DNA from: Nanobdellota archaeon
GTDB taxonomy: Archaea > Nanobdellota > Nanobdellia > JAAOXT01
Length of the DNA stretch: 64,000 bases
Direction: 5' to 3'
Assembly: GCA_018221045.1 (NCBI GenBank)
Contig: JAAOXT010000004.1
Span: 25,117 to 89,116, forward strand
Below, piece after piece: positions 37,077 to 64,000 of this stretch. The translations under genes were made by a program, and so were the position numbers. Numbering within the stretch: the stretch's first letter is position 1; each line of letters opens with the position of its first letter. The notes under the pieces are model-generated. The model was given only the letters and a program-made list of their open reading frames with translations, was not told where the DNA came from and made no database searches.

Positions 37077-37183
37077 TATCGTGTTTGAAAAGGATTCGAA
37101 AAGGTTTTTTAAACGTTTTGATTTCATTATTTTAAAGGTAAAAAGGTTTAAAAACCTTGCAAAAGAATTAAATGTTTTGACAG

Positions 37184-37258
37184 GGACCCGTGGCGCAGCC
37201 TGGATAGCGCGACAGCCTTCTAAGCTGTATGTCGGGGGTTCAAATCCCTCCGGGTCCA
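37184..37258 (+). tRNA. tRNA-Arg (UCU)
   Basis: Hand-folded. Acceptor GGACCCG/CGGGTCC. D arm GCGC/GCGC. Anticodon stem ACAGC/GCTGT with loop CTTCTAA. T arm GGGGG-TTCAAAT-CCCTC. Confidence 0.9.
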
Positions 37259-37314
37259 TATTATGGAACAATTCAAAGAATTGTGGGGTTTAACAATTCC
37301 TTATCTAAAAAAAG

Positions 37315-50439: not shown

Positions 50440-52794
50440 TCATATCATGGGATATTGATAATCATTATCAGGGTAATCGTGTAACTCGTAAGGGTCAACT
50501 GCAAGAGGGGTATCAGATGTATAACTATATGGGTGGCAGTAATTAGAATCTGTATAATAACCTAAAAGGTCAATGAAGTGTATTTGTCCAAAGTTCACGA
50601 TGACGTCACAGATGTATGTTCTTTCCGCCCAGTCCATTATTTTTTGCACGTTGTAGTCTCCTACGCTTCGCTCGCATCCGAGTGGCGTCCACGTCGTTCC
50701 TTTTGGGCAGCAGTACTTTCCAGGAGTTTGGTCGAGTCCAGAGCAAGTTGAGCCTGGCTGGCACTCACATGAGCTAGTGCATTCTTTACCCGCTACGCTG
50801 GCGCTTACTTTGCTTTCGTATTTTTGTATGCATTCTTGCATTGAATCCCTTACCTGCGGGTAGCGCGGAGCCATGCACACGTCTGTCAGGCAGTTAGCGC
50901 AAACACCACCTATCAGCTCGGTTACTTGTCCAAACCCGGGTATTAGCATCCACCAGCAGCACCCCAACCAATTGGATTCAAGACAGTTCCTGCTTCGCTG
51001 TATCATCCCCCCATCAATAGCGTTATTGGCTTTGTTAGAATCATAATACTTAACATTTTCTCCGCTGTAATCAAATTTTTTATTCATAAAGCACATTTTG
51101 ATTTCTTGCTCGTTGTCCATTAATTCTTCTCCCGCATCATCAATTCTTATCATGTACCCGCAAGCATCCCTATCCTGTGCTGGACAATTTGGGTTGCAAA
51201 TAGCTTCTTCTGAATCATAAAGTGGACAATAGGATATACTCATGTCTTGCGGACAGTTCTCACAGTTCTCACCTAAATCAGTCTCTGCCACCCCGTTCCC
51301 GCAGTAAGGGAAGTAATTATAGTCCAGGAAACCTAATTTGTTTTCGTAGACAGGTATTGGCACGTTTTGACCGTAATCCGCTGACGTGATCACGTCGTAG
51401 TCGTACTCGTAATCATAGCAGTACTTCCATTCCCTGACCAAATCATAACTCGCCTCATTACCTGCAGAGCATGTTTTACTTATCTCAAAAATCGAGGTTT
51501 GGGAGCCTGAAACGGATTCTAGTTCACATTCTTGCCACGTGTCGATTGCCGTGCACTTGTACTTGGCGTTTTGCACGTAAATGTATCCTGTTCCTGTAAA
51601 GTCTCCTCCAGAAGCGCTTATTATGTCTTCATCAAATACTGAGAACGTTTTATCCATCCTATTGATTGTTATGCTATTCTTATCTCCTGACAAGTCCGTG
51701 TAAACGTCTTCTTGTGGTATCGAATCTATTGCGTGTTTGCCCGCGCCTTTCAGGTAACATTCTTCCTGTTCAACCAAGTCTAAACAGACTGAAGGGTTTA
51801 ATTTTGCTTCGTCGCAACTGTCTTGGCAAAACGTTTGGACTGAACCGCAGTTTTTCCATTTTTTGATACCATTCTCTACCACGATGTTTTCATCCTCATC
51901 TCTTACATAAGGGTCCACGTAGCAGTCTCCTGACGGGTTCCATTCAGTGGTTCCTGCTTCAGCGTCCCAATTGGTTTCCCAGCTTAACGGCCAATCGCTT
52001 GTCGTATGGCTTATGCTTGTGTCTCCTTTTATGGCGAAGGTAAATTTGATTGGTAGGCTCAGGATTTTTTTCTCCATCTTGTTAGGGAAGTTCATACAGC
52101 AAAGGATTTTTGGGTCTGACACGTTGATGAATGATGTTGAGTTATATCCCGCGCAGTTCACGCCGCTGCAGGACATGGGCTCTTGCACTCCTCCTTGACA
52201 GTCTTCATCGTTCCCGTCCTCTAATCCATCCATGTCATCATCCTCCCCATTGTTACATACATCCATACATTGACCGTCCTCACAACCAATTCCAGTTCGG
52301 GAGTTCCACTCGTTTGGAGAACAGTCGTAAACGTTTTTTCTTTCCAGTGGGCATCGAAAAGTTTTTTCAAAAAGACCGAAGCTTATGAGCCTCCAACAAC
52401 CTTCCGTGTCCCCGTAACAGTCTTTGTCTGCAGGGCAGATGTAATCATAGCCAGTTATTCCGCAAGTTCCAGTAAACCACTCTTCAACATTCTTCACGCA
52501 CCTTTTGCCTGTGTGTTCTAGCGTGCACGCAGTGTTTTCTGATTGCGTTATCTCTCCGTCCATTGAAACATCTACGTAAATTGTTTGGTCGTCTTCCACG
52601 TTTTGGAATGGGTTGACCGTTTCAGGCGGGGCTTTGTATTCTGATAAAGCGCTTCCAAGAACCATGACAGTGTTGCCAGACTGGTTGTTGTAATACATTT
52701 CCATGAAACCGTTGTAAATGTCTGACGGGTTCGCTGCAATAACTGTTGGAATAATGAACAAACAAGTGGTTATGAAGAGTAATTTTTTATCCAC
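50440..52794 (-). CDS. Cluster gene S: 784-aa secreted, extremely Cys-rich protein
   Basis: Sec-type signal MDKKLLFITTCLFIIPTVIAA. About 50 Cys by hand count. Acidic motif CNNGEDDDMDGLEDGNDEDC. Overlaps gene R by 8 nt. No family recognised. Confidence 0.7.
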   Translation of the reverse strand: MDKKLLFITTCLFIIPTVIAANPSDIYNGFMEMYYNNQSGNTVMVLGSALSEYKAPPETVNPFQNVEDDQTIYVDVSMDGEITQSENTACTLEHTGKRCVKNVEEWFTGTCGITGYDYICPADKDCYGDTEGCWRLISFGLFEKTFRCPLERKNVYDCSPNEWNSRTGIGCEDGQCMDVCNNGEDDDMDGLEDGNDEDCQGGVQEPMSCSGVNCAGYNSTSFINVSDPKILCCMNFPNKMEKKILSLPIKFTFAIKGDTSISHTTSDWPLSWETNWDAEAGTTEWNPSGDCYVDPYVRDEDENIVVENGIKKWKNCGSVQTFCQDSCDEAKLNPSVCLDLVEQEECYLKGAGKHAIDSIPQEDVYTDLSGDKNSITINRMDKTFSVFDEDIISASGGDFTGTGYIYVQNAKYKCTAIDTWQECELESVSGSQTSIFEISKTCSAGNEASYDLVREWKYCYDYEYDYDVITSADYGQNVPIPVYENKLGFLDYNYFPYCGNGVAETDLGENCENCPQDMSISYCPLYDSEEAICNPNCPAQDRDACGYMIRIDDAGEELMDNEQEIKMCFMNKKFDYSGENVKYYDSNKANNAIDGGMIQRSRNCLESNWLGCCWWMLIPGFGQVTELIGGVCANCLTDVCMAPRYPQVRDSMQECIQKYESKVSASVAGKECTSSCECQPGSTCSGLDQTPGKYCCPKGTTWTPLGCERSVGDYNVQKIMDWAERTYICDVIVNFGQIHFIDLLGYYTDSNYCHPYSYTSDTPLAVDPYELHDYPDNDYQYPMI

Positions 52795-55375
52795 AGCGGT
52801 TCACCTCCAGTCCCCAACAAGAACCGTATCGTACCACAAAGTATTCGTTTCCAAGAATATCTGTTCCAGAGCAACAGTTTTGTGTTTCTGGGTTAAAAAG
52901 CGATATGAATGTTCCGGCAGCGCAGTTAGCGCAACAGTATCCTGTTTGCTCGCAAACACTTACACTGTTATAATTAAATGTTTTTTGAGTTACTGTGCTA
53001 GTAGTAAACCCTGAGTTATGTGTACATGTAACTGTTAATTTCACGTTTATACTTGATTCGGGATACCCCTGCGCACAATCAGTATCGTGTTCCACAAACG
53101 TGATTAAATCCCTTGGGTTTTCGGTTGGCGAAGAAGGTGAAGGGTAAATAATGTCTCCATCCCTGTTCTTAACGAGCCAATGATAAACACAGTCGGTTTC
53201 AGGTATCCCACATTGCAGGTTGGAAGCTATTTTTTGGCTTGATCCTTGAGCGTTTAACCAATAATCCACTGAATCCACAAAAGTTATGCCACCACACCAC
53301 CACCCTCCTGAATACAATATCTTACCAATTGGCAATATGACTGCGTCGGGCACGGGCTTGGCGTCAAGTGTAATACTCATAGTAGTGCAGTTCGTGTGCC
53401 TGGTTTGAGGGTTGTCAACGCTCTGCGTTGTGCTCGGAGGACTGCCCGAAACATAGTTAGCTGTCACGCATACCTTCACGTCAGTCCTGGCGTAATTACT
53501 CCCCTCAGGAAACGTTAATTCCATCCTGGTTTGGTCGTTGTAACTGCTAGGCTGCTCAGTTCCCCCTATTTGATTGCCATTAGTGTCGTAATTTCTAACA
53601 AACCATCTTATTGTCTGTTGTCTTGCGAAGTGTTCGGACAAGTCGAAATAAGCTCCTACGCTTTGGCAAGCACTTCCTTGGATTAACTGGTCGTTGAAAG
53701 AGTAATAACCTTTTATTTTCCCTGAAAGCGCGCCGTAAGCCTTAAACAACTGGTCTTTAAATTCGTCGTCGAATCTTGTCAGGCTCTGCACTTTTTTGTC
53801 AGAGTAAGGCGGGGCTTCTTCCAAATCGTCGTTATCATCATTCCAAACATCATCGTAGAAGTCCCTGACCCTCTGCCTATCCGTGCTACCCCAATCTATC
53901 GTGCCGTCAGAGTCTATTTTGATTAAAGACACATCATCTGACATCTCTCTGGGCTTGCAGGGAACGCATGAAGTATTGTACGTTTCCATGGCGTAAGCGT
54001 AAGGGCTCAAATCACTATTAGTGTCAACGTAATCGATGCTGGCTTCGTTGTCCGTGAACGTGTAATTGTACCCGTCGTGCGATGCCGCAAGGCCTCTTTC
54101 AGAGTTGAACTCGTCAAGAATCATTTTTTCCACTCGGGAAGCGTCGTAAACACAGGTTGCACTGCAGTTCACAGGATCCTCTCCTGAACAACCTCCTGTC
54201 TTCACGGGTTCTCTGCTTGTTATCTTGCACGTCGGGTTTTGTGTGCTGAACTCTGGACTAGGGGTCTCGTACCAAACGAATTCCCCAACGCTTTTCTTAA
54301 TTCCTGGAACGCAACCCGTCCATTCACCGTCAACGCACATGCTGACCATTGTGGTTTTGCAGTTATTGCTGCCGCAGTCTTGGCTTGTTTCATTGTAGTT
54401 TTCAGTGTTGAAAGCGAATCTTTGTTTTAGCACGTGAACGTCGTTCACCCCGCTCGAGTAGGAGCCTGTGCACTGCCTTTCTTCGTAGAACTCTGTTATC
54501 GTCGAGTCCGGAGAATACTCCGCTCCGTAGCTCGTGTCAGCCGAGTACGTTCCTGTTTGGTCTATCCTGTAAGCGCAGGTTTCGTTGTGCGTGATGATTG
54601 AGTATTTGTTGAGTTGTTGTTTGGCCATGGTTTCGTAGTCTTTGTTTAAGACAAAGTTTTTGGCTTCTTCGTAAAGGCTTGGGAATTTGTTCTCCACCAC
54701 GTTGTGCACGAGGGTTGTGGCCGTGTAGCTGACGGATGGCTTGCCTTGGTAGCTCGCGCCAAGAAGTCTTATCTTGTCGTCGCCCACTATGAACCATTGA
54801 TTTTCAAAGTAATTTCTATCTGATGACGGGCATAGGTCTCCTCCAATGTCGCTGTTTTTCACTCCGCACGACGCCAGTTGGTAAACGTATTTTACGTTGA
54901 AGTTCAGTCCGTAAATTATTTCTAGACTGTTTAGGAAGTTCTGGTCTGGCGTGGCGGAGAATCTTTCAGCTATAAGTGTTATGTTATTGAGTATTGACGT
55001 GAATTCTGGAATGCAGAAGGAGGGATTGGATGACGCGTTGTACCAGTAAGGCACTACTTTTTCTGGCATGTAATTGTGTTTTGGGAGTGTGTCTAAGTAA
55101 CCGCATTCCTGGTCTCTTATTTGACTTTGGTTTCCGCCGTAACCCCCTCTGCTTCCTATTTGGTAAATTATTTTTTCGAAAGTGTATCTTCTTTCCCTGT
55201 CCAATAGGAATTTGATGTTTTCCGCTGTTTGGGCTGTCTGAACTATCTGTGTTCTATAAAAAGGCAAGGCAGATTCTGAGGAAGCTCTTATCGCAATGTA
55301 TCCCATCCCGAACGCTGCTAGCGACAATATTGATATTGTTACAAGTATGTAAGCTAAGGATTGGGCTTTTTTCAT
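52787..55375 (-). CDS. Cluster gene R: about 862-aa Cys-rich surface protein with a class III-like signal (MKKA|QSLAYILVTISILSLAAFG)
   Basis: ATG 55375 abuts the stop of gene Q. The track start 55456 lies inside Q. The long ectodomain has many Cys and ends in a CCANCAAG...CCSG...CWGLEVNRCG knot. Confidence 0.7.
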   Translation of the reverse strand: MKKAQSLAYILVTISILSLAAFGMGYIAIRASSESALPFYRTQIVQTAQTAENIKFLLDRERRYTFEKIIYQIGSRGGYGGNQSQIRDQECGYLDTLPKHNYMPEKVVPYWYNASSNPSFCIPEFTSILNNITLIAERFSATPDQNFLNSLEIIYGLNFNVKYVYQLASCGVKNSDIGGDLCPSSDRNYFENQWFIVGDDKIRLLGASYQGKPSVSYTATTLVHNVVENKFPSLYEEAKNFVLNKDYETMAKQQLNKYSIITHNETCAYRIDQTGTYSADTSYGAEYSPDSTITEFYEERQCTGSYSSGVNDVHVLKQRFAFNTENYNETSQDCGSNNCKTTMVSMCVDGEWTGCVPGIKKSVGEFVWYETPSPEFSTQNPTCKITSREPVKTGGCSGEDPVNCSATCVYDASRVEKMILDEFNSERGLAASHDGYNYTFTDNEASIDYVDTNSDLSPYAYAMETYNTSCVPCKPREMSDDVSLIKIDSDGTIDWGSTDRQRVRDFYDDVWNDDNDDLEEAPPYSDKKVQSLTRFDDEFKDQLFKAYGALSGKIKGYYSFNDQLIQGSACQSVGAYFDLSEHFARQQTIRWFVRNYDTNGNQIGGTEQPSSYNDQTRMELTFPEGSNYARTDVKVCVTANYVSGSPPSTTQSVDNPQTRHTNCTTMSITLDAKPVPDAVILPIGKILYSGGWWCGGITFVDSVDYWLNAQGSSQKIASNLQCGIPETDCVYHWLVKNRDGDIIYPSPSSPTENPRDLITFVEHDTDCAQGYPESSINVKLTVTCTHNSGFTTSTVTQKTFNYNSVSVCEQTGYCCANCAAGTFISLFNPETQNCCSGTDILGNEYFVVRYGSCWGLEVNRCG

Positions 55376-55845
55376 GGCGTGAACGTCACCCCTTGTTTTT
55401 TGAACATCATGACTATTGTTGGCTCGCCTGAGGGCGAGTAAACTTTTATGAAACATTGTAGCGCGTATTTTTGGGTGGCTTCATCGCTGATTATGCTTCT
55501 TAGCTCTGAGCTTGAGCCGAAGCGAACGTGCATTCCCACGCTTTGCTCAAACCCCGGGTTTCTTTCAAGTTCTTCTTGGAACGCGAAGTATGACGCTGAC
55601 CTGTTGTAAAGGCTTTGGTATTTTTGTTTGAGGAAAGTGTCTGGAGTCATTCCTGTTTTTGAGTAGTCACTGCTCACAAGGTTTTCAAGAAGGTTTGTGC
55701 ACATACTGCTGGTTTCAGCGTCTTTTATTGAGAGTATTGCTTGCATGCTCACAGAGTCCACGAACATGGACATCACTAAAAGCAGTCCCATTATGATTAT
55801 CGTGCTTATTATCACCCCTACTCCTGTAAAGTCTCCTTTTTTCAT
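55372..55845 (-). CDS. Cluster gene Q: 157-aa pilin-like protein (MKKG|DFTGVGVIISTIIIMGLLLV)
   Basis: Short basic leader ending in KG, then a hydrophobic helix of about 22 residues, then a globular part of about 120 aa with only 2 Cys. ATGA coupling with gene P. Confidence 0.65.
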   Translation of the reverse strand: MKKGDFTGVGVIISTIIIMGLLLVMSMFVDSVSMQAILSIKDAETSSMCTNLLENLVSSDYSKTGMTPDTFLKQKYQSLYNRSASYFAFQEELERNPGFEQSVGMHVRFGSSSELRSIISDEATQKYALQCFIKVYSPSGEPTIVMMFKKQGVTFTP

Positions 55846-56702: not shown

Positions 56703-58505
56703 TTATGTTCCTCCCGCCCAATTGCAGAAATCTGTGTTGTCAGTGCAGTAACCGTCTGGCCCGCAACAATAACTTATCGGACAGCCGTCTTCAGCGCCAA
56801 GCATTGTCGGGTCTTCCGAGTCGTGAGTGCATTGCTTGCATTGGTTGAAGTCTTGGCAAAAACAGTTTGGTTGCTCGCAGGAACCGTGTTTTGGAATGCA
56901 TGGCCCGCACTCGCCGGTTTCTAAGCAACAATTGTTTGTGTTGATGTCATCAAACGTTTTTGAAACGCATCCTTTGCGCGGGTCGTCTTCTTCATTCACG
57001 CTTCCGTCGCAGGAAGGGTAGTGCGTGACAACACAGTTTTCTTGGGATGTCAGGATTATTCTATCATCGTCGTGGGATAAGGTGTTTAGACTGTCAGCGC
57101 ACACTTCGTAATCCAGGGACGCGTCAAGAGTTGTGCACCAGTCACTCCACGAATAAATTGCTGTTATTACGTGAGGGACATCAATCATTAGTTCGAATCC
57201 TTTGCTCGTCACGTCTTTTTTCAAGTTCACGCAGATCTCGTTGACCCATCCTCCATCGATTCCTCCCACTCCGAACTCGTATCTTACCAATGGTTGTTCG
57301 GATATTGTTTGGGTTTCTGGACTAGTGTATTCTGCTGGGATTAATCTTGAAGTTATGCCTTCCACGCTTTCTAACTCTGGGTAAAATGTTTTGACGTTGC
57401 CGATTGAATACGCTATGTTTGGAATTGGAAGGTTTTCGTTCGCGTTTTTTAAAGAGGTTTCAGTGGTTGGTTCACCGTCTTGTTCGATCCACGTGAAAAG
57501 TCCCTTCGGGCTCATAATTTGTTTTTGCTGACAAATCACCAGTGTTTCATCGTGGCAGTGACCATCCTGCCCGCAGTAATAAGTTTCAGGACATCCTTCC
57601 TCGCTTCCTGATTCTGAAGGGTTGTCAGGGTTGTACGTGCAGGGCACGCATTCGTACGAACCTGACACTCGTTTACAGTACTCGTTGTCTTGACAATCAT
57701 CGCACCAACATCTGTTAACAGTACCAACAGTACCCGTTCCTATTTCCAACAATTTTTCGGCATTTGTTAAACCAGTGCATGGAGGATTGTAAGATTGTCC
57801 GTTCGTGTCGGAAAAATTTATTCTGAACCCGGGGGTTAGGCTGAGGCTTGTTGTTTTATTGGTGAACACGCTGTTCTCCATTTGCGCGTAAACGCTCATC
57901 ACGTCCTGTAATAACCTTATCATTCCCACGTCTTCCGCAATGATTACGGGCGTCGTGCCCTCCTTATCGAAGAACAGTCCGCTTGTCAGCGAATCGTAAA
58001 AAGTTCTTCTTTGTTTGGATACGAGAACCGAATCTGTTCTTGGTTGAATGTATAATGGAATGCTTTGTCTTTCAAGGGCTTTTTCTTCAGCGAAGTCTGC
58101 GAAGTGCTGGCTTGTTGGAAAGCTTTGGCTTCTCTTTTCCTCGTCAACAGTGTACTCAACTTTCATGGACTCGTAGGCAAGCGTGTTCACGCCTTGAGTG
58201 CAAGGAGCTGGAGTGGTTTTAACGAAAGCAGGGTCCAGTCTTAACGAGGTTATGTTGATTTCTTCTCCTTGGCAATAGTAAATTCCTTGTTCCCATTTGC
58301 AGTCCGGCGTGCCGTAGTACAGCACGTAAACGTTGTCCGGGACGGCTGTGCAAGCTTCTCTTAGGGATGCAACGTCGTAAACGAGCAGAGCCATTTTTTT
58401 TCCCATGTCAAAGCTTGGCGCCATCATTCTTTGAACGACGAACGCTGACCCCACCACTAGTATCGCTGCCGCGACCAGTGCTCCTACTGTTTCTATTGAC
58501 GTCAA
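56703..58505 (-). CDS. Cluster gene O: 600-aa Cys-rich protein with an N-terminal helix (MTSIETVGALVAAAILVVGSAFVV) and an internal Cys-knot repeat
   Basis: The repeat CVPCTYNPDNPSESGSEEGCPETYYCGQDGHCHD resembles CKQCTHDSEDPTMLGAEDGCPISYCCGPDGYCTD. Confidence 0.7.
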   Translation of the reverse strand: MTSIETVGALVAAAILVVGSAFVVQRMMAPSFDMGKKMALLVYDVASLREACTAVPDNVYVLYYGTPDCKWEQGIYYCQGEEINITSLRLDPAFVKTTPAPCTQGVNTLAYESMKVEYTVDEEKRSQSFPTSQHFADFAEEKALERQSIPLYIQPRTDSVLVSKQRRTFYDSLTSGLFFDKEGTTPVIIAEDVGMIRLLQDVMSVYAQMENSVFTNKTTSLSLTPGFRINFSDTNGQSYNPPCTGLTNAEKLLEIGTGTVGTVNRCWCDDCQDNEYCKRVSGSYECVPCTYNPDNPSESGSEEGCPETYYCGQDGHCHDETLVICQQKQIMSPKGLFTWIEQDGEPTTETSLKNANENLPIPNIAYSIGNVKTFYPELESVEGITSRLIPAEYTSPETQTISEQPLVRYEFGVGGIDGGWVNEICVNLKKDVTSKGFELMIDVPHVITAIYSWSDWCTTLDASLDYEVCADSLNTLSHDDDRIILTSQENCVVTHYPSCDGSVNEEDDPRKGCVSKTFDDINTNNCCLETGECGPCIPKHGSCEQPNCFCQDFNQCKQCTHDSEDPTMLGAEDGCPISYCCGPDGYCTDNTDFCNWAGGT

Positions 58506-58509
58506 AGTT

Positions 58510-59544
58510 TTATCCTCCTACTGCTTTGATGAATATTGGGTGAAAGACTCTTTCTTCGTTGCTATTCACTGTTTGGTATGCTTTTTCGTTTTGGGTTGCG
58601 CTTATCACTTCCGCGCTGGTTTCACTCCAACCCATGAGAATTGGTATGAACGCTTGTGACGGGTTCGACGGGTTTTTGAGTCCTATTATTGCTGGTGCGC
58701 CTTGGTTTTCGCAACCCAGTTCTGACAGTTTTTTGCATGTTATGATCTTGTTGAAGAATGGGAAGTCCATTGGCCAGGACGCTCCTGCAATGGAATAAGC
58801 AGACGCTAAGAACGTGGCCCTTGAGAATTCTTCCAGCGCAGTGTAGGCCGTGCCGTAAACTCCTTCAATATCGTAAGATATTGTTTCGCCATTAACGTTG
58901 TTCACGACTAAGTATGTCATGCTTCCTACCCCGAAAACATTTTTTTCAGGGGTGAAAGCGTAATCCTTTGTTCCCACCATGTCAATTGCCTTCGTGTTTT
59001 GGTCAAAGATGGGTTGTTCTCCTCCAAAAAAATAAAGAAAATTGTTATCTGATGGAGGAGTGCTCTGGCCTAAACTCATTATCCAGTTAAGAACATCCAT
59101 AAACGTGTTAGTGTTCACGCTAGCTAAGCAGACGCAGTTATCACCTATTATTCCTCCTGTTCCCGCTGCAACGTTTGCATTGCACTTTTGGAGTTCTCCT
59201 TCAAATTTTTGTTTTTCCTGCGCTAATTGCTCGGACTTGTCAACAGACCATATCCAAAAGCTCTGCATTGTTGGAAGTTGTTCGTAATCTTCTCCCAAAG
59301 TATCAATTTCGGGGTGCGTTTGTATTATCATATAACCATAAGGTATTTTGAAGCCCGTGTCCGCCGCGTAACCGTTATCGCAGGCTCCTTGCAGCACTCT
59401 AGTGAATTTTGCGAAGCTAGCTCTGGCCTCAGCCCCTGCAAGAAAGCTTATTCCTCCTGAAACAACTATTGCTCCTACAACGAGAACAAACACTAAAACT
59501 AGCACGTCCTTAATTATTTCTCCATATAACAGCATTCTCGCCAT
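58510..59544 (-). CDS. Cluster gene N: 344-aa single-pass protein, paralog of gene L
   Basis: SFAKFTRVLQGACDNGYA, YMIIQTHPE and CVCLASVN align with AFEKFTTGISSACVNGYA, WNIIQVYPD and CLCLIRAP in gene L. Confidence 0.7.
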   Translation of the reverse strand: MARMLLYGEIIKDVLVLVFVLVVGAIVVSGGISFLAGAEARASFAKFTRVLQGACDNGYAADTGFKIPYGYMIIQTHPEIDTLGEDYEQLPTMQSFWIWSVDKSEQLAQEKQKFEGELQKCNANVAAGTGGIIGDNCVCLASVNTNTFMDVLNWIMSLGQSTPPSDNNFLYFFGGEQPIFDQNTKAIDMVGTKDYAFTPEKNVFGVGSMTYLVVNNVNGETISYDIEGVYGTAYTALEEFSRATFLASAYSIAGASWPMDFPFFNKIITCKKLSELGCENQGAPAIIGLKNPSNPSQAFIPILMGWSETSAEVISATQNEKAYQTVNSNEERVFHPIFIKAVGG

Positions 59545-59555
59545 TTTTTTTTTGT

Positions 59556-59750
59556 TTAAGACACTTTTATTTGGGTTAATCCTTCACTAGCGTTGCCTAA
59601 CAAGTTTTCAGAGCCTTGTGTGACGTTCCCGATGTTAGCTTTTCCAGACTCAATGTTCGGAAATATGAACAAGATTACCACAACCGCAACTATCAGGATT
59701 ATTATTAGTGTAAAAACCATTTTAAAACTCATTTCCGATCCCTTTTTCAT
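59556..59750 (-). CDS. Cluster gene M: 64-aa pilin-like protein (MKKG|SEMSFKMVFTLIIILIVAVVVILFIF)
   Basis: KG leader, hydrophobic helix and a short polar tail. Confidence 0.6.
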   Translation of the reverse strand: MKKGSEMSFKMVFTLIIILIVAVVVILFIFPNIESGKANIGNVTQGSENLLGNASEGLTQIKVS

Positions 59751-59791
59751 TGGTTTAAATCAAAGTGTTCAGAATTAATAAAAGTTCTTCT

Positions 59792-60748
59792 CTAGCTCGG
59801 AGTGCTCATGTACACTGGTTCAAAAGTGCTGGAGGACTCTGATTTTTCAAAAGTGATCAGTGAAGCTTGAGAGTTCTCCACTATCATGAACACAGGATTC
59901 AAGTCCATACCTTCTTTCATGGCGAGGATTGCTGAATTGTTGTAAAAGTTGGGTTGCGCGTTTCCGCATTTCATGGAGTTCATTGACGTGCAGGCCTCGA
60001 ACTTATCGATGAATACTAACGGCCACTTAGTAAGAGAATCAATTCCTATCAATAATGATACTGGTGTGAAAAAGTAGATTGTGTCAAGGCTTTTCAGGAC
60101 CGCGTAATCGCTTTTTTCAGGGTTGTGGAAATCTTGTTTCAGAAAGCTTATGTAATAAGGAATTACTTCGTTTCCGTTGTTCGAATCTATTTTAGGAAGA
60201 GGGTTTGGTGCATAGCTCATGATTCTAAGGTTTCTGAAGTTTTTAGTGGTTATTAGCGGCACGGGTACTTCCCCTGAATTATACGCGTCACTATCTAAGT
60301 TCAGGTCAAGGATGGACGGCGCTCTTATGAGGCACAGGCAGGGCGAGCCAATGGCTTGTCCTGTTCCTTCCCTGAATTGGCTGTTGCAAGAGTTTTCCGT
60401 TGTGTTAGTTATGTCGATTACTCTTTGCACTTTGTTTCTTAGTGCTTCGAATAAAGGGGAGAAAACTATCATTCCTTCCTCCTCATTCAACTCGTTTACT
60501 ATGTCTTGCATTCTTTCAGCGTCAGGGTATACTTGTATTATGTTCCAATCATCTGACAGTGAGAAGTCCTCTATTTCCGCGTATCCATTCACGCATGCAG
60601 AGCTAATCCCTGTAGTGAATTTTTCGAAGGCTATGTGGGCGAAAACAGCTCCGAGTCCTGAGATTATGCCGAAAGCCACTACGGTTACAATTAGTATGAA
60701 CACTGCTAGGACGGCGAAGTCGAATATTAGGTTTCCCCAATCCTCCAT
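59792..60748 (-). CDS. Cluster gene L: 318-aa single-pass protein, paralog of gene N
   Basis: See gene N. The + strand ORF 60219-60755 is its antisense shadow. Confidence 0.7.
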   Translation of the reverse strand: MEDWGNLIFDFAVLAVFILIVTVVAFGIISGLGAVFAHIAFEKFTTGISSACVNGYAEIEDFSLSDDWNIIQVYPDAERMQDIVNELNEEEGMIVFSPLFEALRNKVQRVIDITNTTENSCNSQFREGTGQAIGSPCLCLIRAPSILDLNLDSDAYNSGEVPVPLITTKNFRNLRIMSYAPNPLPKIDSNNGNEVIPYYISFLKQDFHNPEKSDYAVLKSLDTIYFFTPVSLLIGIDSLTKWPLVFIDKFEACTSMNSMKCGNAQPNFYNNSAILAMKEGMDLNPVFMIVENSQASLITFEKSESSSTFEPVYMSTPS

Positions 60749-60800
60749 TGTTTAAGTAGAAGGGTTTTGCGCGTAAATAAAGGTTTTCCTGATATCATGA

Positions 60801-60828
60801 GTTATGATAAAGTGGTTATGATAAAGTG
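60801..60828. repeat. Perfect 14-nt tandem duplication GTTATGATAAAGTG x2 spanning the stop codon of gene K
   Basis: Read directly: 60801-60814 is identical to 60815-60828. Confidence 0.9.
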
Positions 60829-61220
60829 CAGGTCCCGTCAACGCATTCATAACCAGAGTAAATGCATTCACTGTTTTTTGTGCAGGGTCCTCCTCTCCAT
60901 CCACCGCAACTGCCGTCTGTCAGGCATCTTCCCACGTCTTCTCCGCTCTTGCACGGCCTGTTAATGCAATCCGGGTCGTCGCAGTCTATCAGGAAGTCGC
61001 CGTCATTGTCTTTTCCGTCAGCGCACTCGTTCTCAACTCCTGAAGCAGTAGTGCCTATGTCTCCTACTCTACCAGCGGTTTCCTCGCTTCCTTGAGCTGA
61101 TTGGCCGGATATTGAGCCGAAGCCTTGTGTTAGGAAACTTTGTTGGCTTGTAAAGAACACTATCGCAGCGATTAATACTACTAATGCGATTATTATCATC
61201 ACGATTTTATTGAATTCCAT
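60816..61220 (-). CDS. Cluster gene K: 134-aa pilin-like helix (MEFNKIVMIIIALVVLIAAIVFF) fused to a Cys-rich module
   Basis: CADGKDNDGDFLIDCDDPDC followed by PCKSGEDVGRCLTDGSCGGWRGGPCTKNSECIYSGYECVDGTC, which is paralogous to the C-terminus of gene J. Confidence 0.7.
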   Translation of the reverse strand: MEFNKIVMIIIALVVLIAAIVFFTSQQSFLTQGFGSISGQSAQGSEETAGRVGDIGTTASGVENECADGKDNDGDFLIDCDDPDCINRPCKSGEDVGRCLTDGSCGGWRGGPCTKNSECIYSGYECVDGTCTLS

Positions 61221-61241
61221 CTTTTTTTGGGTTGGTTTTTT

Positions 61242-61259
61242 AAAAAAAAATAAAAAAAA
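61242..61259 (-). terminator. Oligo-T tracts (T8 and T9 on the coding strand) after gene J: candidate archaeal intrinsic terminator
   Basis: The + strand reads A9-T-A8. These are the longest T runs I noticed on the coding strand within the cluster. Confidence 0.4.
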
Positions 61260-61277
61260 TGTAAGTTTTTACTTTGT

Positions 61278-61682
61278 TTATGTTGGACAAGTCTCTGCAG
61301 TTATGCACGTGCCATCACAGCACATTTGACCTGAATACGAACAGTCCAGATTTTTTTCGCAAGGCCCGTTCATCCATCCTCCACAAACACCTATGGACAA
61401 GCATTCTCCTGTTTCGACACCTTCACTGCAGGGTTTTCCCAAGCAGGCCTTTAATTCACATTGTGGTGGTACAGGACATCCTGTTCCTGTTACAACTCCT
61501 GGCAGGCTTCCAATGGTTTCTTCTGTTTGAGAGCCTTGTTCGCCAGTGGCTGTGGATAGTCCTCCTAACCCTCCTGCTAGTGTTCCTAATTGGGATGTGA
61601 ATAATACAATCACTCCTATTATGACCACTATTATTATCAAGAGGGTTGCTATTGTTTGGAACTCCATTCCTTTGTTATTCAT
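61278..61682 (-). CDS. Cluster gene J: pilin-like protein with leader MNNKG|MEFQTIATLLIIIVVIIGVIVLF and a Cys-rich C-terminal module
   Basis: ATG 61682 lies 5 nt after the stop of gene I. ATG 61667 would start at MEFQTI, as in the paralogs. The track start 61697 is a GTG inside gene I. Confidence 0.7.
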   Translation of the reverse strand: MNNKGMEFQTIATLLIIIVVIIGVIVLFTSQLGTLAGGLGGLSTATGEQGSQTEETIGSLPGVVTGTGCPVPPQCELKACLGKPCSEGVETGECLSIGVCGGWMNGPCEKNLDCSYSGQMCCDGTCITAETCPT

Positions 61683-61687
61683 GATTA

Positions 61688-61882
61688 TTACGCGCACTCC
61701 GGGGCGTCCGGGTTTATGAAACAGTTAACGCTTCCTGTTGCTTCTGTTGTCGCATCCCCGCTGGTTGTTTGCAATTGTCCAGTCGCATCCCCTGCAGGAC
61801 CCATCTGGGTTACGAAAAATATTATGGCGACCACCGCGACTATCAAAATGATTATTAAAGTAAATATGGTTTGAAACTGCAT
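61688..61882 (-). CDS. Cluster gene I: 64-aa pilin-like protein (MQFQTIFTLIIILIVAVVAIIFF)
   Basis: ATG 61882 lies 1 nt after the stop of gene H and is preceded by GGAGGAG. The track start 61915 is a TTG inside gene H. The tail has 2 Cys (CFINPDAPEC). Confidence 0.65.
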   Translation of the reverse strand: MQFQTIFTLIIILIVAVVAIIFFVTQMGPAGDATGQLQTTSGDATTEATGSVNCFINPDAPECA

Positions 61883-61883
61883 T

Positions 61884-62120
61884 TTAAACTCCTCCCTCCA
61901 CGCATTGCCCGTCAACGCAAGTGAATCCTTCGTCGCATTGAGCGTCTGAAGCGCAGAAATTGGTTATGGTTCCCGTGGCTACGGTGGATTGTTCTTGAGT
62001 CGCCCCGCTCAGTTCTTGTTGAGGCACCGTTAGCTGGCCGAATTGAGTTACGAAAACTATTATCACTGCAATGATGACTATAAGAATGATGAGCAATGTT
62101 GCTATAGTCTGGAATTCCAT
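61884..62120 (-). CDS. Cluster gene H: 78-aa pilin-like protein (MEFQTIATLLIILIVIIAVIIVF) with a 4-Cys tail
   Basis: Tail CASDAQCDEGFTCVDGQC. There is no in-frame upstream start before a stop codon (checked by hand). Confidence 0.65.
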   Translation of the reverse strand: MEFQTIATLLIILIVIIAVIIVFVTQFGQLTVPQQELSGATQEQSTVATGTITNFCASDAQCDEGFTCVDGQCVEGGV

Positions 62121-62146
62121 TTTCTTTCTTCTATTTTTAGTGCGTG

Positions 62147-62158
62147 TTTTTTAATAAA
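62147..62158 (-). promoter_or_regulatory. Candidate internal TATA box (TTTATTAAAAAA on the coding strand) ending 26 nt upstream of the gene H ATG
   Basis: AAAGTTTATTAAAAAAC resembles the GTTTATA-type elements upstream of lrp and the tRNAs. It implies a near-leaderless mRNA. Confidence 0.3.
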
Positions 62159-62173
62159 CTTTTTCATGATTTC

Positions 62174-62356
62174 TTAACCGCCAGGCGGGGTGTAACCCGA
62201 TATTAGGTCTCCTGCTTCAGTGGTTTTATCTCCTGTTTCCCCAGTTAATTCTTCTGTGGGAGCGTTCATGGTTCCGAACCCGGTTATGAAAAATATTATT
62301 ACCACTACCACGACTAGTATTATGATTAATAGCGTGAATATGGTTTGAAACTGCAT
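62174..62356 (-). CDS. Cluster gene G: 60-aa pilin-like protein (MQFQTIFTLLIIILVVVVVIIFF)
   Basis: Lies 7 nt after the stop of gene F. No in-frame upstream start. The polar tail has no Cys. Confidence 0.6.
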   Translation of the reverse strand: MQFQTIFTLLIIILVVVVVIIFFITGFGTMNAPTEELTGETGDKTTEAGDLISGYTPPGG

Positions 62357-62363
62357 TTTATTT

Positions 62364-62792
62364 TTATCTCGTTCTTGTGGAAGTTCTTCCCCCTGTTACG
62401 GTCGAGCGATCGCAGTCCGGTGAACCGGTCCAGCCGATAGTTCTTGTCTTGCCGTCTTGAGTGCTTGCAGTGCATGTTGGCAGGACTGCTTCGCAGTAAG
62501 TTGTTCTGAGTGTTCCTGTTTCGTCAGCTATGTCTAAGGATAGCGTGCAGTATCTCGAGTCCGACACGTCTTGCTTTGAGTAAACCATCAGGTTTAGTTC
62601 GTTGCATGCTTGCTGGCAGGAAGTTCTTAACGCGGTTAGGTCTGATCCTCCTGTCGCGCCCGCGCCAACAGTGCTTATCTGTCCGAAAAGTTGGGAGCCG
62701 CCTGTCATGAAGAACACTCCTATGACTATCAGCACAAGCAAAGCCATTATTATTATGATTATCATGTTTATGGGCATTCCTTGGGCTTTCAC
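62364..62792 (-). CDS. Cluster gene F: 142-aa pilin-like protein (MKAQG|MPINMIIIIIMALLVLIVIGVFF) with a 6-Cys globular part
   Basis: The track start is GTG 62792, which gives a KAQG leader. The first ATG (62777) would start at MPINM. Confidence 0.6.
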   Translation of the reverse strand: MKAQGMPINMIIIIIMALLVLIVIGVFFMTGGSQLFGQISTVGAGATGGSDLTALRTSCQQACNELNLMVYSKQDVSDSRYCTLSLDIADETGTLRTTYCEAVLPTCTASTQDGKTRTIGWTGSPDCDRSTVTGGRTSTRTR

Positions 62793-62829
62793 AACCTATT
62801 TTTTAGACGTTTAAACTTAAATACTTTAT

Positions 62830-63159
62830 TTAAGAAAGTTGCGCGCAAAACCCTTCTACGCAGTTTAAGCCCTGACAACATGGCTCTTCGCCTCCGCATT
62901 CTTGTCCGCTGGTCTTGCAAGTGCAAACGCTTTCCGAGCAATAAAATCCTCTGCAGCACTTTATTCCTTGTGACACGTCGCAGAAAGTTCCTTTTCCAAC
63001 GCATCCCGCAATGTTGGCAATGGTTGACGAGCCCGACTTGCCGAGTTCTTCTCCACCTTCTTTTACTTGTTCTAACGGGCTGAGACCAAGCAGGAAGGCC
63101 ACACCTATCATAAGTAGTGCTAAGATTAATACCATAACTAAGACTAATGAATTTTTCAT
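62830..63159 (-). CDS. Cluster gene E: 109-aa N-terminal helix plus two tandem 6-Cys knottin-like modules
   Basis: Module 1 is C-x6-C-x7-CC-x4-C-x4-C and module 2 is C-x6-C-x5-CC-x4-C-x4-C (CVGKGTFCDVSQGIKCCRGFYCSESVC-T-CKTSGQECGGEEPCCQGLNCVEGFC). Confidence 0.7.
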   Translation of the reverse strand: MKNSLVLVMVLILALLMIGVAFLLGLSPLEQVKEGGEELGKSGSSTIANIAGCVGKGTFCDVSQGIKCCRGFYCSESVCTCKTSGQECGGEEPCCQGLNCVEGFCAQLS

Positions 63160-63302
63160 GTTGAGGGTAATAAACTGGTTGGTATTTGTGAGTAGGCTTG
63201 GGCTTGGTCTTTAGATGTTTCGAGCATTGGAACCCCGAATAAAAGGACTATTACAAGCATTATCAGGGCGAGCACTATTATTATTATTGTTTTCATTTCC
63301 AT
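63156..63302 (-). CDS. Cluster gene D: 48-aa pilin-like protein, absent from the ORF track
   Basis: Hand translation gives MEMKTIIIIVLALIMLVIVLLFGVPMLETSKDQAQAYSQIPTSLLPST. The stop overlaps the gene E ATG (ATGA). Confidence 0.55.
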   Translation of the reverse strand: MEMKTIIIIVLALIMLVIVLLFGVPMLETSKDQAQAYSQIPTSLLPST

Positions 63303-63305
63303 TGT

Positions 63306-63449
63306 TTATTCACCGAATAATCCGAACGCTAAATCGTTCATTTTCCCGCCTTGCTCTTGAGCTTGACCTAAATATTGGATTCCTAACATGACTAGCATCG
63401 CTACGAACATTACTATAAGAATCATTATCATCACTGTTTTCAGTTCCAT
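63306..63449 (-). CDS. Cluster gene C: 47-aa pilin-like protein, absent from the ORF track
   Basis: Hand translation gives MELKTVMIMILIVMFVAMLVMLGIQYLGQAQEQGGKMNDLAFGLFGE. Lies 7 nt after the stop of gene B and 3 nt before the gene D ATG. Confidence 0.55.
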   Translation of the reverse strand: MELKTVMIMILIVMFVAMLVMLGIQYLGQAQEQGGKMNDLAFGLFGE

Positions 63450-63456
63450 TTGCTTA

Positions 63457-63627
63457 TTATCCCCATCCCATGCTTTGGCCCATAGCGTTTATGACTGTCC
63501 CGCTCTGCTCCCTCCAAGGAGTGATTAAGAATATTATTAATAAAACCGCAATGACTAATCCTATCACAACCAGTATTATTATGAACGTCTGGTCTATCTC
63601 GAAACGGGCCTTATTATTTAATTTCAT
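63457..63627 (-). CDS. Cluster gene B: 56-aa pilin-like protein (MKLNNKA|RFEIDQTFIIILVVIGLVIAVLLIIF)
   Basis: ATG 63627 overlaps the stop of gene A (ATGA). The track start 63660 lies inside gene A. Confidence 0.6.
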   Translation of the reverse strand: MKLNNKARFEIDQTFIIILVVIGLVIAVLLIIFLITPWREQSGTVINAMGQSMGWG

Positions 63628-64000
63628 TCCACAACCTCTTTGATGCATATCACCACACAATCTAAAGGCGCGCGGTCAGCGTTTTTTATTACCGCATTAT
63701 TACAGTAGTCGCTGGTAATAAATGGTTTTGCTGACGCCGCAGAGTCATAATAAGATACATATACTTTCCCGTTTTTTAGTGTTTCGTCAAGCAGTTTATT
63801 ATCCATTTCCATGTTTGTGCATAAAGTTCCAGGGGAATCATAATCAAAGCACAATAGAACTTTATTCGGGTTCAATAATTCTTTATAGGTTTGGCCGCGG
63901 TCCGGAAAGTATTCTTGGTCATATTCATCGTATAAGCCTCCAACCTCTTTATTCTTTTCGAAATCGTACAAGAAAGCGTAGCATTTTGATAAAGGTTGTT
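63624..64000 (-). CDS. Cluster gene A: C-terminal part of a protein whose 5' end lies beyond the window
   Basis: The frame stays open upstream of the track's TTG start (...QPLSKCYAFLYDFEKNK...) to position 64000. The visible part has 6 Cys. Confidence 0.55.
   Translation of the reverse strand, partial: QPLSKCYAFLYDFEKNKEVGGLYDEYDQEYFPDRGQTYKELLNPNKVLLCFDYDSPGTLCTNMEMDNKLLDETLKNGKVYVSYYDSAASAKPFITSDYCNNAVIKNADRAPLDCVVICIKEVVE

Follow-up and report, generated by a model that had tools for sequence, protein, structure and literature searches.

The stretch of DNA analyzed here, called the window below, comprises 64,000 nucleotides of contig JAAOXT010000004.1 from a Nanobdellota archaeon. Near its end, on the minus strand, lies a gene for a small protein (the target; MKNSLVLVMVLILALLMIGVAFLLGLSPLEQVKEGGEELGKSGSSTIANIAGCVGKGTFCDVSQGIKCCRGFYCSESVCTCKTSGQECGGEEPCCQGLNCVEGFCAQLS) with a hydrophobic N-terminal helix, an acidic tether, and a head in which 12 cysteines form two consecutive units spaced as in the inhibitor cystine knot (ICK), or knottin. 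The initial annotation had described this protein as tandem knottin-like modules fused to a pilin-like helix. A single open reading frame (ORF) of 109 amino acids lies exactly at the coordinates it gave, and the spacing it had read, C-x6-C-x7-CC-x4-C-x4-C followed by C-x6-C-x5-CC-x4-C-x4-C, held up residue by residue. The protein already sits in the databases, where automated annotation has tagged it with Pfam family PF02950, but it is undescribed.

The target gene is real, belongs to a DPANN archaeon, and is kept by selection. The same locus is found at 92 to 98% nucleotide identity (about 94% overall) in a sister genome, the GTDB species representative 'Candidatus Parvarchaeota archaeon isolate Meg19_1012_Bin_507' (contigs L005 and L008). 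The ortholog there (L005 6404..6733, with the gene present on L008 as well) is again 109 amino acids long and keeps all 12 cysteines. Between the two copies there are 11 synonymous and 8 nonsynonymous changes; the resulting dN/dS of 0.20 indicates purifying selection on the minus-strand frame and, together with the full conservation of the cysteines, rules out a chance ORF or a gene on the opposite strand. Contamination of the metagenome-assembled genome (MAG) is also ruled out, since the contig is 111 kb long and carries archaeal housekeeping genes and since the target is present in two independent assemblies. The archaeal chromosome markers within the window are GatD/GatE, two FtsZ proteins, Spt5, ribosomal proteins L1/L10, many aminoacyl-tRNA synthetases, the tRNA intron endonuclease, and NucS. 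Recent horizontal transfer is not evident from GC content, which is 46% for the gene and 44% for the locus.

The public NCBI gene model, P0001, is 101 amino acids long and begins at Met9 (window position 63135, compared with 63159 for Met1). We favor Met1, because residue 9 is an isoleucine in the ortholog and because the Met1 start codon overlaps the stop codon of the upstream gene (ATGA); on these sequence grounds, the shorter model is unlikely to be correct. The same overlap, with a gene encoding a 48-amino-acid mini-protein, implies cotranscription in an operon and translational coupling of the two genes.

The cysteines of the head stand at residues 53, 60, 68, 69, 74, and 79 and at residues 81, 88, 94, 95, 100, and 105, so that a single residue (T80) separates the units. 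Such a pattern is far from chance. Cysteine accounts for 0.93% of the residues in the housekeeping proteins of the window (8.6 thousand residues), 4.6% in the locus, and 11% in the target; at the housekeeping frequency, the probability of at least 12 cysteines in 53 amino acids is 8e-14. When the 53-residue segment was shuffled with its 12 cysteines kept, two ICK patterns appeared in 5.5e-5 of the shuffles. Across all six frames of the window, the ICK-type pattern C..C..CC..C..C occurs three times, twice as the units of the target and once at the C terminus of a neighboring gene, J. Both units satisfy the ICK consensus, CX3-7CX3-8CX0-7CX1-4CX4-13C (PMC4942781), with loops of 6, 7, 0, 4, and 4 residues in unit 1 and 6, 5, 0, 4, and 4 in unit 2.

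Comparison with Pfam toxin families, structure prediction, and exclusion of hevein (CBM18) and CBM14 folds had been proposed as checks in the initial annotation, and all three came out in favor of a knottin-like head. In Pfam, the best matches were Conotoxin (PF02950), at 27.8 bits for the full-length target against a gathering threshold (GA) of 25.1, and Toxin_7, at 23 to 27 bits, with unit 1 alone reaching 26.9 bits against a GA of 27. Most other weak Pfam matches of the cysteine region were to ICK families as well (Toxin_12, Toxin_19, Conotoxin_I2, Atracotoxin, and Tachystatin_B), the non-ICK ones being Dickkopf_N, SMK1_alpha_su, and ArgoL1; unit 2 alone gave weak matches solely to ICK families and Dickkopf_N. 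Searching the PDB with the target by phmmer returned ICK peptides in 8 of 10 matches (delta-palutoxin IT1/IT2, agelenin, tachystatin B, DkTx, and ceratotoxin) and methionine synthase in the other two. We also built a module profile from 13 modules of the target and of the database proteins P0002, P0004, and P0005. At E<=1, it matched 47 PDB sequences, and every recognized one is a knottin; leading the list were Xt3a (E 1.8e-7, in two stretches), cyriotoxin-1a, asteropsin G, Hi1a, Tsp1a, omega-conotoxins (among them omega-MVIIA and SVIB), and DkTx. The scores are modest.

Fold prediction agrees with these matches. From the single sequence, AlphaFold modeled the head at a predicted local distance difference test score (pLDDT) of 77 to 87. 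When it was given a six-row alignment in which all 12 cysteines and three glycines are invariant, the mean pLDDT was 81.5 over residues 45 to 109 and 84 to 89 in the head. On these models, DSSP assigned strands to residues 66-68, 72-75, and 78-81 of unit 1 and to residues 98-101 and 104-107 of unit 2, centered on C68, C74, and C79 (cysteines III, V, and VI) and on C100 and C105 (cysteines V and VI), respectively, giving predicted hairpins centered on cysteines V and VI. In a Foldseek search of the PDB, the top match was DkTx, a double-knot toxin (prob 0.97, E 9e-3), followed by about 35 single ICK toxins at TM scores of 0.6 to 0.8 and root mean square deviations (rmsd) of 1 to 2.5 Å. With consensus spacing, mostly ICK matches in Pfam and the PDB, and double- and single-knot toxins as the nearest structures, the tandem knottin-like reading is borne out. 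The head consists of two ICK-like modules, similar to knottins both in sequence profile and in predicted fold. Its knot topology is a prediction; if the fold is canonical, the disulfides would join residues 53-69, 60-74, 68-79, 81-95, 88-100, and 94-105.

A related arrangement was found in other archaea. P0002 (319 amino acids) forms, with P0011 to P0014, a small archaeal family at 42 to 52% identity. Its members are 270 to 325 amino acids long and have a transmembrane anchor, three or four separated C6C5-6CC4C4C modules (one more near the C terminus was counted by eye), linkers rich in N-x-T, and a central CVDSDGGKNPYL domain. Their genes (L001 2666..3625, L006 10001..10822, and L007 3032..3853) always lie between an XPF/ERCC4 nuclease gene and a Hef-like helicase gene, on contigs that encode PolD DP2, the XPF/ERCC4 nuclease, and the same type of filament ATPase and platform pair as the one described below for the target cluster. 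The Pfam family Toxin_12 matches P0002 at 22.6 bits against a GA of 21, and precomputed annotation assigns it to P0002 and, among the four relatives, to P0011, P0012, and P0014. These proteins show a second archaeal lineage that, to judge from their sequences, uses a six-cysteine knottin-like module on a membrane anchor. The presence of the module in single copies between long linkers argues that it folds autonomously. We thus found two unrelated archaeal knottin-like families, that of the target and that of P0002.

Look-alikes of the complete double head were few. A word-indexed protein search with the target returned the target itself alone, and a metagenome scan with the same protein gave 348 pattern matches, none of which was confirmed. 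A profile of the two modules together, two rows of which were artificial concatenations of P0002 modules, found merely a few fungal and bacterial double knottins. P0005, P0006 (Crucibulum), and P0010 (Mycena) are fungal or fungal-like, with P0006 and P0010 being double knottin-like proteins with ordinary Sec signals. P0007 and P0008 (L003 2285..2578) come from a bacterial-looking contig; in each, an ordinary Sec signal again precedes two modules. P0004 (L002 540..1022) has four tandem modules joined by linkers of 0 to 1 residue. P0003 was rejected as a relative, its match being spurious and due to a low-complexity CTCT repeat.

The target is a member of a type IV filament (TFF) gene cluster, the features of which are collected in Table 1.

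Table 1. Features of the target gene and of the surrounding cluster (positions are those of the window)
Feature	Position	Strand	Evidence
Target coding sequence, 109 aa plus TAA stop, ATG start; helix-tether-double-knottin protein	62830..63159	-	Sole ORF at these coordinates in the open reading frame list
Target residues 1-25, MKNS plus unbroken hydrophobic stretch, one predicted helix (residues 3-25)	63085..63159	-	AlphaFold, pLDDT 77-85
Target residues 26-52, acidic/Gly/Ser tether LSPLEQVKEGGEELGKSGSSTIANIAG, 27 residues, predicted disordered	63004..63084	-	AlphaFold, pLDDT <50 at 26-31 and 33-49
Knottin-like unit 1, residues 53-79, CVGKGTFCDVSQGIKCCRGFYCSESVC, C6C7CC4C4C	62923..63003	-	Pattern match; Toxin_7 near GA; phmmer to delta-palutoxin IT1 and agelenin
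Knottin-like unit 2, residues 81-105, CKTSGQECGGEEPCCQGLNCVEGFC, C6C5CC4C4C	62845..62919	-	Pattern match; weak Pfam; phmmer to DkTx K2 lobe
Upstream 48-aa mini-protein (MEMKTIIII...)	63156..63302	-	Stop overlaps target start codon (ATGA), junction ...CTCAACATGAAAAAT
Downstream 142-aa pilin, class-III-type signal (MKAQG/MPINMIIII...), 6 Cys	62364..62792	-	Homologous to pilin-like protein of L064; on L008 too
Gene H, 78 aa, MEFQTI helix plus 4-Cys module CASDAQCDEGFTCVDGQC	61884..62120	-	phmmer, 11.3 bits to target Cys region
Gene J, 139 aa, helix plus 12-Cys tail, last module CEKNLDCSYSGQMCCDGTCITAETC fits loose ICK pattern	61278..61697	-	Pattern match
Gene K, 134 aa, helix, acidic double-disulfide repeat, 4-Cys module CTKNSECIYSGYECVDGTC	60816..61220	-	NF033662, 31.9 bits, cutoff 41
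Part of TFF cluster inside window, 18 co-directional genes, each with N-terminal hydrophobic helix	50440..64000	-	

The cluster genes of the window encode, in order, proteins of 784, 889, 157, 286, 600, 344, 64, 318, 134 (K), 139 (J), 75, 78 (H), 60, and 142 amino acids, then the target, and then proteins of 48, 47, and 67 amino acids. A gene for 271 amino acids crosses the window end with its C-terminal part inside, and the ATPase and platform genes lie beyond that end; their order was read from the sister contig L008. There, the cluster is headed by a T2SSE ATPase (760 amino acids, PF00437), a 710-amino-acid polytopic platform protein of T2SSF/PilC-like type (a weak T2SSF match, E 5e-4, 20.4 bits against a GA of 25.2), and an 1,854-amino-acid cysteine-rich protein beginning MKG/IIEP (here and below, a slash marks the putative cleavage position). 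Next come proteins of 272 (Ig-like), 51, 362 (MKG/MTITF), 271, 56, 47, and 48 amino acids, the target, and proteins of 134/142 (MKAQG/MPIN), 60, 78 (H), 64, 136 (J), 134 (K), 318, and 64 (MKKG/) amino acids. Farther on, 341, 596, 287, 157 (MKKG/), and 861 amino acids and more genes follow, all of them co-directional. In this order, which comprises at least 24 co-directional genes, the target comes roughly 11th.

Two groups of neighbors deserve mention in their own right. Several of the mini-genes for 47 to 78 amino acids (59556..63660, minus strand) start with M[EQ][FML][QKN][TK][IV], continue with about 20 hydrophobic residues, and are almost headless; going by their N termini, they are apparently leaderless pilin-like proteins. 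Gene J has the MEFQTI start as well, placed behind ...NNKG, which there looks like a cleavable leader. At the other extreme are giant cysteine-rich proteins without a Pfam match, of 784 (50440..52794), 889 (52787..55456), and 600 (56703..58505) amino acids in the window, along with the 1,854-amino-acid protein of L008 (3458..9022), which has 104 cysteines and no Pfam match either. Their C-terminal parts are stacks of short cysteine modules, and they are presumably adhesin-like and filament associated.

The platform protein places this cluster in a wider setting. A second archaeal (DPANN) lineage, of 29% GC, encodes a counterpart beside a T2SSE ATPase, with 32% identity between the two (E 3e-100), and JGI metagenome contigs supply 443 or more relatives, with an invariant motif [VI]LYIVVYMRHTPNLE. 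The protein defines a very widespread and apparently uncharacterized DPANN-type TFF cluster. We assembled a set of 80 related metagenome loci (L009 to L088; 964 kb) and scanned them in six frames. Thirty-one of the loci extend 6 kb or more downstream of the platform gene, and in 26 of these, 5 to 14 helix-first ORFs come after it. The related loci carry textbook type IV pilin N termini, such as MNKKG/FLLAEETLK (with Glu at +5) and MNKKAQG/LSTSTII, of the classes G/FLLAE and KxQG/LS, and each locus has one to four small proteins with at least four cysteines. One of the pilin-like proteins (97 amino acids, MANKRG/AMSIEMII..., encoded downstream of the L064 platform gene) is 38% identical to the 142-amino-acid neighbor of the target (pairwise E 9e-15). 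The strict knottin pattern is found in none of the 80 loci, where six loose matches look like off-frame noise. Given this absence, knottin heads are not general to this type of pilus, and we regard the head as a lineage-specific acquisition.

Genes H, J, and K share a C-terminal four-cysteine module, C5C5-6C4C (C-x5-C-x5/6-C-[VC]DG-x-C). From a closing motif recurring in these genes, C-V-[DE]-G-x-C, the initial annotation had suggested one shuffled module family across the locus. The motif does recur, in the form C-x-[DE]-G-x-C: of its five occurrences in the six frames of the window, all fall in this locus (target unit 2, the 784-amino-acid protein, H, J, and K). For the family itself, the common module of H, J, and K stands, while its link to the knottin units is weak. 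Aligned by hhalign, the knottin-module profile and the H/J/K module gave a probability of 45% (E 2e-4), and phmmer detected similarity to the cysteine region of the target in no locus protein but H. In the hhalign alignment, the four cysteines correspond to knottin cysteines II, III, V, and VI, and the H/J/K module would be a knottin without the I-IV disulfide. The same relationship has been proposed in the toxin literature between the two-disulfide fold called DDH (for disulfide-directed beta-hairpin) and the ICK fold (PMC4942781). On this alignment, the H/J/K module may be DDH-like and related to the knottin units encoded in its own operon. The idea of modules shuffled across the locus is suggestive, not conclusive.

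The last module of gene J also differs between strains. In the window it has six cysteines, including a CC pair (CEKNLDCSYSGQMCCDGTCITAETC), versus four in the sister strain (CGSNSDCLIAGQECDIPEEESKGIC; L005 7866..8291). These 200 bp (61314-61513) are the most divergent spot of the locus, at 72.5% nucleotide identity versus 95 to 100% nearby, and look like a cassette-like replacement or the result of strong diversifying selection. More broadly, the locus from 50500 to 63000 is patchily divergent, with identity dropping to 78 to 89% at 51.5 to 52.5, 55.9 to 56.1, and 57.7 to 57.9 kb, compared with 95 to 99% in the flanking housekeeping genes, as would be expected of exposed, interaction-related proteins. 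The fivefold cysteine enrichment of the locus speaks for a surface role as well.

Two side observations can be added. The acidic double-disulfide repeat of K reads CADGKDNDGDFLIDCDDPDC, and a similar stretch, CNNGEDDDMDGLEDGNDEDC, is found in the 784-amino-acid protein; both may be Ca-binding-type motifs. Elsewhere in the window, a tRNA-Arg(TCT) gene (37184..37258, plus strand) overlaps the 5′ end of a called 808-amino-acid ORF (34845..37271, minus strand, TTG start), the true start of which is probably further downstream.

What, then, might the target do? Its N-terminal hydrophobic helix (MKNSLVLVMVLILALLMIGVAFLLG; a hydrophobic run of 22 residues) may serve as a membrane anchor, as a signal sequence, or as an N-terminal helix of pilin-like type. 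Its build is that of the neighbors, with a methionine, three polar residues, about 21 hydrophobic residues, and then a glycine. The closest N termini are those of the two upstream mini-proteins, at 25 to 28% identity, with LLG-x-x-x-LE in common. We lean, by a little, toward a surface-held protein in which a helix and tether present a double knot as a binding module, most likely as a minor pilin-like filament subunit and otherwise on a plain signal anchor. The disulfide topology, the surface tethering or filament incorporation, and the binding function are all things that we infer.

One can picture how such a protein would work. It would be made together with the pilin-like proteins of the cluster and inserted N-in/C-out, its helix holding it in the filament core or tip or else in the membrane. 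The flexible acidic tether would then expose a small, rigid, protease- and heat-resistant knob, which, touching another cell, could serve as a binding module for adhesion or recognition. If DkTx and Hi1a, as portrayed in a survey of such proteins (PMC6262176), are a guide, two tandem knots would favor bivalent binding of high avidity. For an episymbiotic DPANN cell, the obvious target would be the envelope of its partner, and contacts between DPANN cells and hosts through pili-like connections have been discussed (PMC11329633).

A number of observations weigh against this picture, first of all at the N terminus. The prepilin cleavage motif [KR]-[GA] is familiar from work with FlaFind and on PibD. 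In the target, the hydrophobic stretch (residues 5 to 25) is preceded by MKNS and so by no such motif, unlike the neighbors, which have MKG/, MKKG/, or KAQG/ or are leaderless (MEFQTI...). Nor does the target have an acidic residue at position 2, which most neighbors do (Glu-2 of ME[FML]..). It matches no Pfam or NCBIfam pilin model, even at relaxed E values; among the neighbors, the sole match to such a model is a weak one of gene J to Flp1_like (E 0.003). There is also a possible Sec cleavage site, G19-V-A21/F22, which is conserved in the ortholog. The term pilin-like helix therefore fits in part. The hydrophobic helix, the neighbor-like build, and the pilus context stood; the prepilin motif and the pilin-model match are absent, and because of this the label rests on context. 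For the target as a filament-associated pilin-like subunit, we would say that the case is plausible, if short of probable; a plain signal anchor seems somewhat unlikely, and cleavage and secretion more unlikely still.

Other points on the same side concern relatives, context, and fold. The target has no function-bearing homolog: an exhaustive HMMER search over 1.84 billion representatives gave the target itself and four weak matches, with no intermediates. No prepilin peptidase, extracytoplasmic disulfide oxidoreductase, or other pilus machinery or Dsb-like gene was seen within the window. The isolate name Meg19 suggests Guaymas Basin hydrothermal sediment as the habitat; if so, it is reducing, which raises the question of how six disulfides would be formed and kept. 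After removal of residues 1 to 44, which include the N-terminal helix, the Conotoxin match is gone at E<=1, and part of its score therefore reflects the signal-like helix. All Foldseek E values are above 1e-3, as is usual for domains of 30 residues, and AlphaFold may simply be recalling a toxin pattern. Finally, cysteine spacing alone is no guarantee of a knot, which in the target is a predicted one: ISTX-I has the same disulfide bonding pattern and a different fold (PMC4942781).

The possible Sec site leads to the alternative of a secreted peptide of toxin, antimicrobial, or inhibitor type. Here the helix would be a cleavable Sec signal and the tether a propeptide, and the double knottin, once released, would act against a host or competitor by binding a channel or the envelope or by inhibiting a protease, an organization like that of conotoxin and spider prepropeptides. 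The target does align end to end with the Conotoxin precursor model (residues 8 to 80 with model positions 5 to 75, above GA), the von Heijne-type site is the one conserved in the ortholog, the bacterial look-alikes P0007 and P0008 consist of a Sec signal and two modules, and all structural neighbors are secreted toxins or inhibitors. However, the 22-residue hydrophobic run is of transmembrane length, and a cut after A21 would leave a hydrophobic N terminus, FLLGL. As read from the sequence, neither a dibasic site nor any other obvious site of propeptide processing is present in the tether. The gene stands within a run of pilin-like genes and is translationally coupled to one of them, and the other archaeal knottin-like family, that of P0002, is helix anchored as well. 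We consider secretion unlikely.

Doubtful in a different way is the alternative that the head is not a knot at all. The 12 cysteines might form one domain with bonds between the units, a Dickkopf/colipase-like finger domain, or ladders of disulfide-directed beta-hairpins, or they might be metal ligands. In favor of this alternative, a single residue separates the units (C79-T-C81). Foldseek aligned the head with Dkk1 CRD2 (3s2k_C; prob 0.57, 75 columns, rmsd 4.9 Å) and with the N-terminal region of Dkk4 (prob 0.35), and Dickkopf_N matched at 12 to 17 bits. The four-cysteine modules of H, J, and K (cysteines II, III, V, and VI) would put a simpler two-disulfide hairpin fold in the same locus, and ISTX-I sets a precedent. 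Against this, each unit alone matches ICK profiles and solved ICK structures, and the same six-cysteine module occurs in isolated single copies in the P0002 family. The Dickkopf_N scores are far below the GA of 25, the head shows neither a CxxC nor a His-containing metal-site pattern, and the cysteines are even in number and all conserved. We think it quite improbable that the modules are something other than knots.

A chitin- or carbohydrate-binding module of hevein (CBM18), CBM14, or tachystatin type, acting on host-envelope glycans, can be dismissed as very improbable: the chitin-binding ICK peptides tachystatin A and B are among the weak matches, but hevein has eight cysteines in a different framework, neither Chitin_bind_1 (PF00187) nor CBM_14 (PF01607) matches the target at E<=10, and hevein-type structures stand far below the ICK toxins in Foldseek (Urtica agglutinin and WGA at prob 0.04 to 0.10), so that hevein or CBM identity is rejected.

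We return to the surface-held double knot, which we prefer, and to what it would mean. The initial annotation knew of no such arrangement in archaea, and this agrees with the literature that we searched, in which full-text searches found no report of an archaeal knottin. According to the curated KNOTTIN database in 2017, knottins had yet to be found in archaea. A 2018 survey of tandem cysteine-rich repeat proteins (SCREPs) speaks of 'two distinct domains of life' and, in the part of its text available, names bacteria and eukaryotes alone (PMC6262176). The knottin fold class is already known, as is its tandem arrangement in double-knot toxins and SCREPs. The new elements are the occurrence in archaea, a hydrophobic pilin-like or anchor helix to which the head is joined by a tether, a linker of one residue between the knots, and a gene position within a type IV filament operon. 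If the predicted fold is right, the target appears to be the first double knottin in an archaeal protein. It is an orphan, known from MAGs alone, with a predicted fold and a putative function.

Few mini-protein scaffolds are as stable as knottins or as much engineered. A credible archaeal knottin would fill a gap and would bear on how the ICK fold arose, with an ancient origin, convergence, and horizontal spread all under debate; if true, the fold would be present in all three domains of life. If true, too, a transition from DDH to ICK would be visible within one prokaryotic locus, in four-cysteine modules that toggle with six-cysteine ones between strains. Small, strain-variable, disulfide-rich knobs on pilin-like helices would be candidates for the poorly understood host-contact machinery of DPANN archaea, and how domains of six disulfides are made and kept in what may be an anoxic, sulfidic habitat becomes a practical question. 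One might go as far as to envision a pilus whose rigid, bivalent, toxin-type knots lock onto an envelope protein or channel of the host in episymbiosis. Neither knottins in archaea nor a fusion of pilin and knottin would have been seen before, and the H, J, and K modules would add a DDH-to-ICK transition in one locus. We offer this fuller version as speculation and hold it to be rather unlikely as a whole.

Among known systems, the double-knot toxins come closest to the head. DkTx (tau-theraphotoxin-Hs1a; 6cuc and 5irx), Hi1a (2n8f), and Xt3a (7rz3) likewise have two homologous six-cysteine modules of ICK type in one short chain, and they share the core motif CCxG[LF]xC with the target. DkTx, the best Foldseek match, is 27% identical over 78 columns, and the module profile finds Xt3a in two stretches and Hi1a at E 8e-4. 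These toxins are soluble, secreted animal venom peptides that act bivalently on ion channels (PMC6262176), whereas the target comes from an archaeon, is encoded among pilus genes, and carries its knots on a hydrophobic helix, with the 27-residue tether in between. The linker between knots is a single residue in the target; that of DkTx is flexible and that of Hi1a short and structured (PMC6262176). No common descent with the double-knot toxins can be demonstrated.

Single-knot toxins of the O superfamily and the omega-conotoxins (PF02950) and of the Toxin_7 (PF05980) and Toxin_12 (PF07740) families have the same C-C-CC-C-C framework as the target, with loops of 6, 5 to 7, 0, 4, and 4 residues. 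The start of omega-MVIIA, CKGKGAKC, resembles CVGKGTFC and CKTSGQEC of the target. The target differs from these toxins in being tandem, tethered, and archaeal and in lacking a metazoan-style propeptide cleavage site. The double-knottin look-alikes P0006, P0007, P0008, and P0010 align with the head in all 12 cysteines and in the glycines of CxxxG and CCxG(L), at 33 to 39% identity; they differ in their cleavable Sec signals, inter-knot linkers of 3 to 5 residues, and lack of a pilus context. The P0002 family is like the target in being archaeal and in carrying C6C5-6CC4C4C modules behind an N-terminal transmembrane anchor, with about 40% identity over a single module. It differs in its long linkers and in its stand-alone gene between the XPF and Hef-like genes, outside any pilin run, and its lineage has a GC content of 29%, compared with 42 to 44% for that of the target.

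Turning to filaments, no archaeal type IV pilin has been described with a knottin head, and the target in turn has neither the class III cleavage motif nor a pilin-model match. Nanoarchaeal pilins have been reported as unidentified, and cysteine-rich components of type IV pili, presumably disulfide stabilized, have been noted in Thermoproteales (PMC4858521), which gives the target locus a likeness there. In gene makeup, the cluster resembles 'system 2' of a TFF census in a 2026 preprint (10.64898/2026.04.22.720090), with its long ATPase, single platform gene, and many small helix-first and large adhesin-like proteins.

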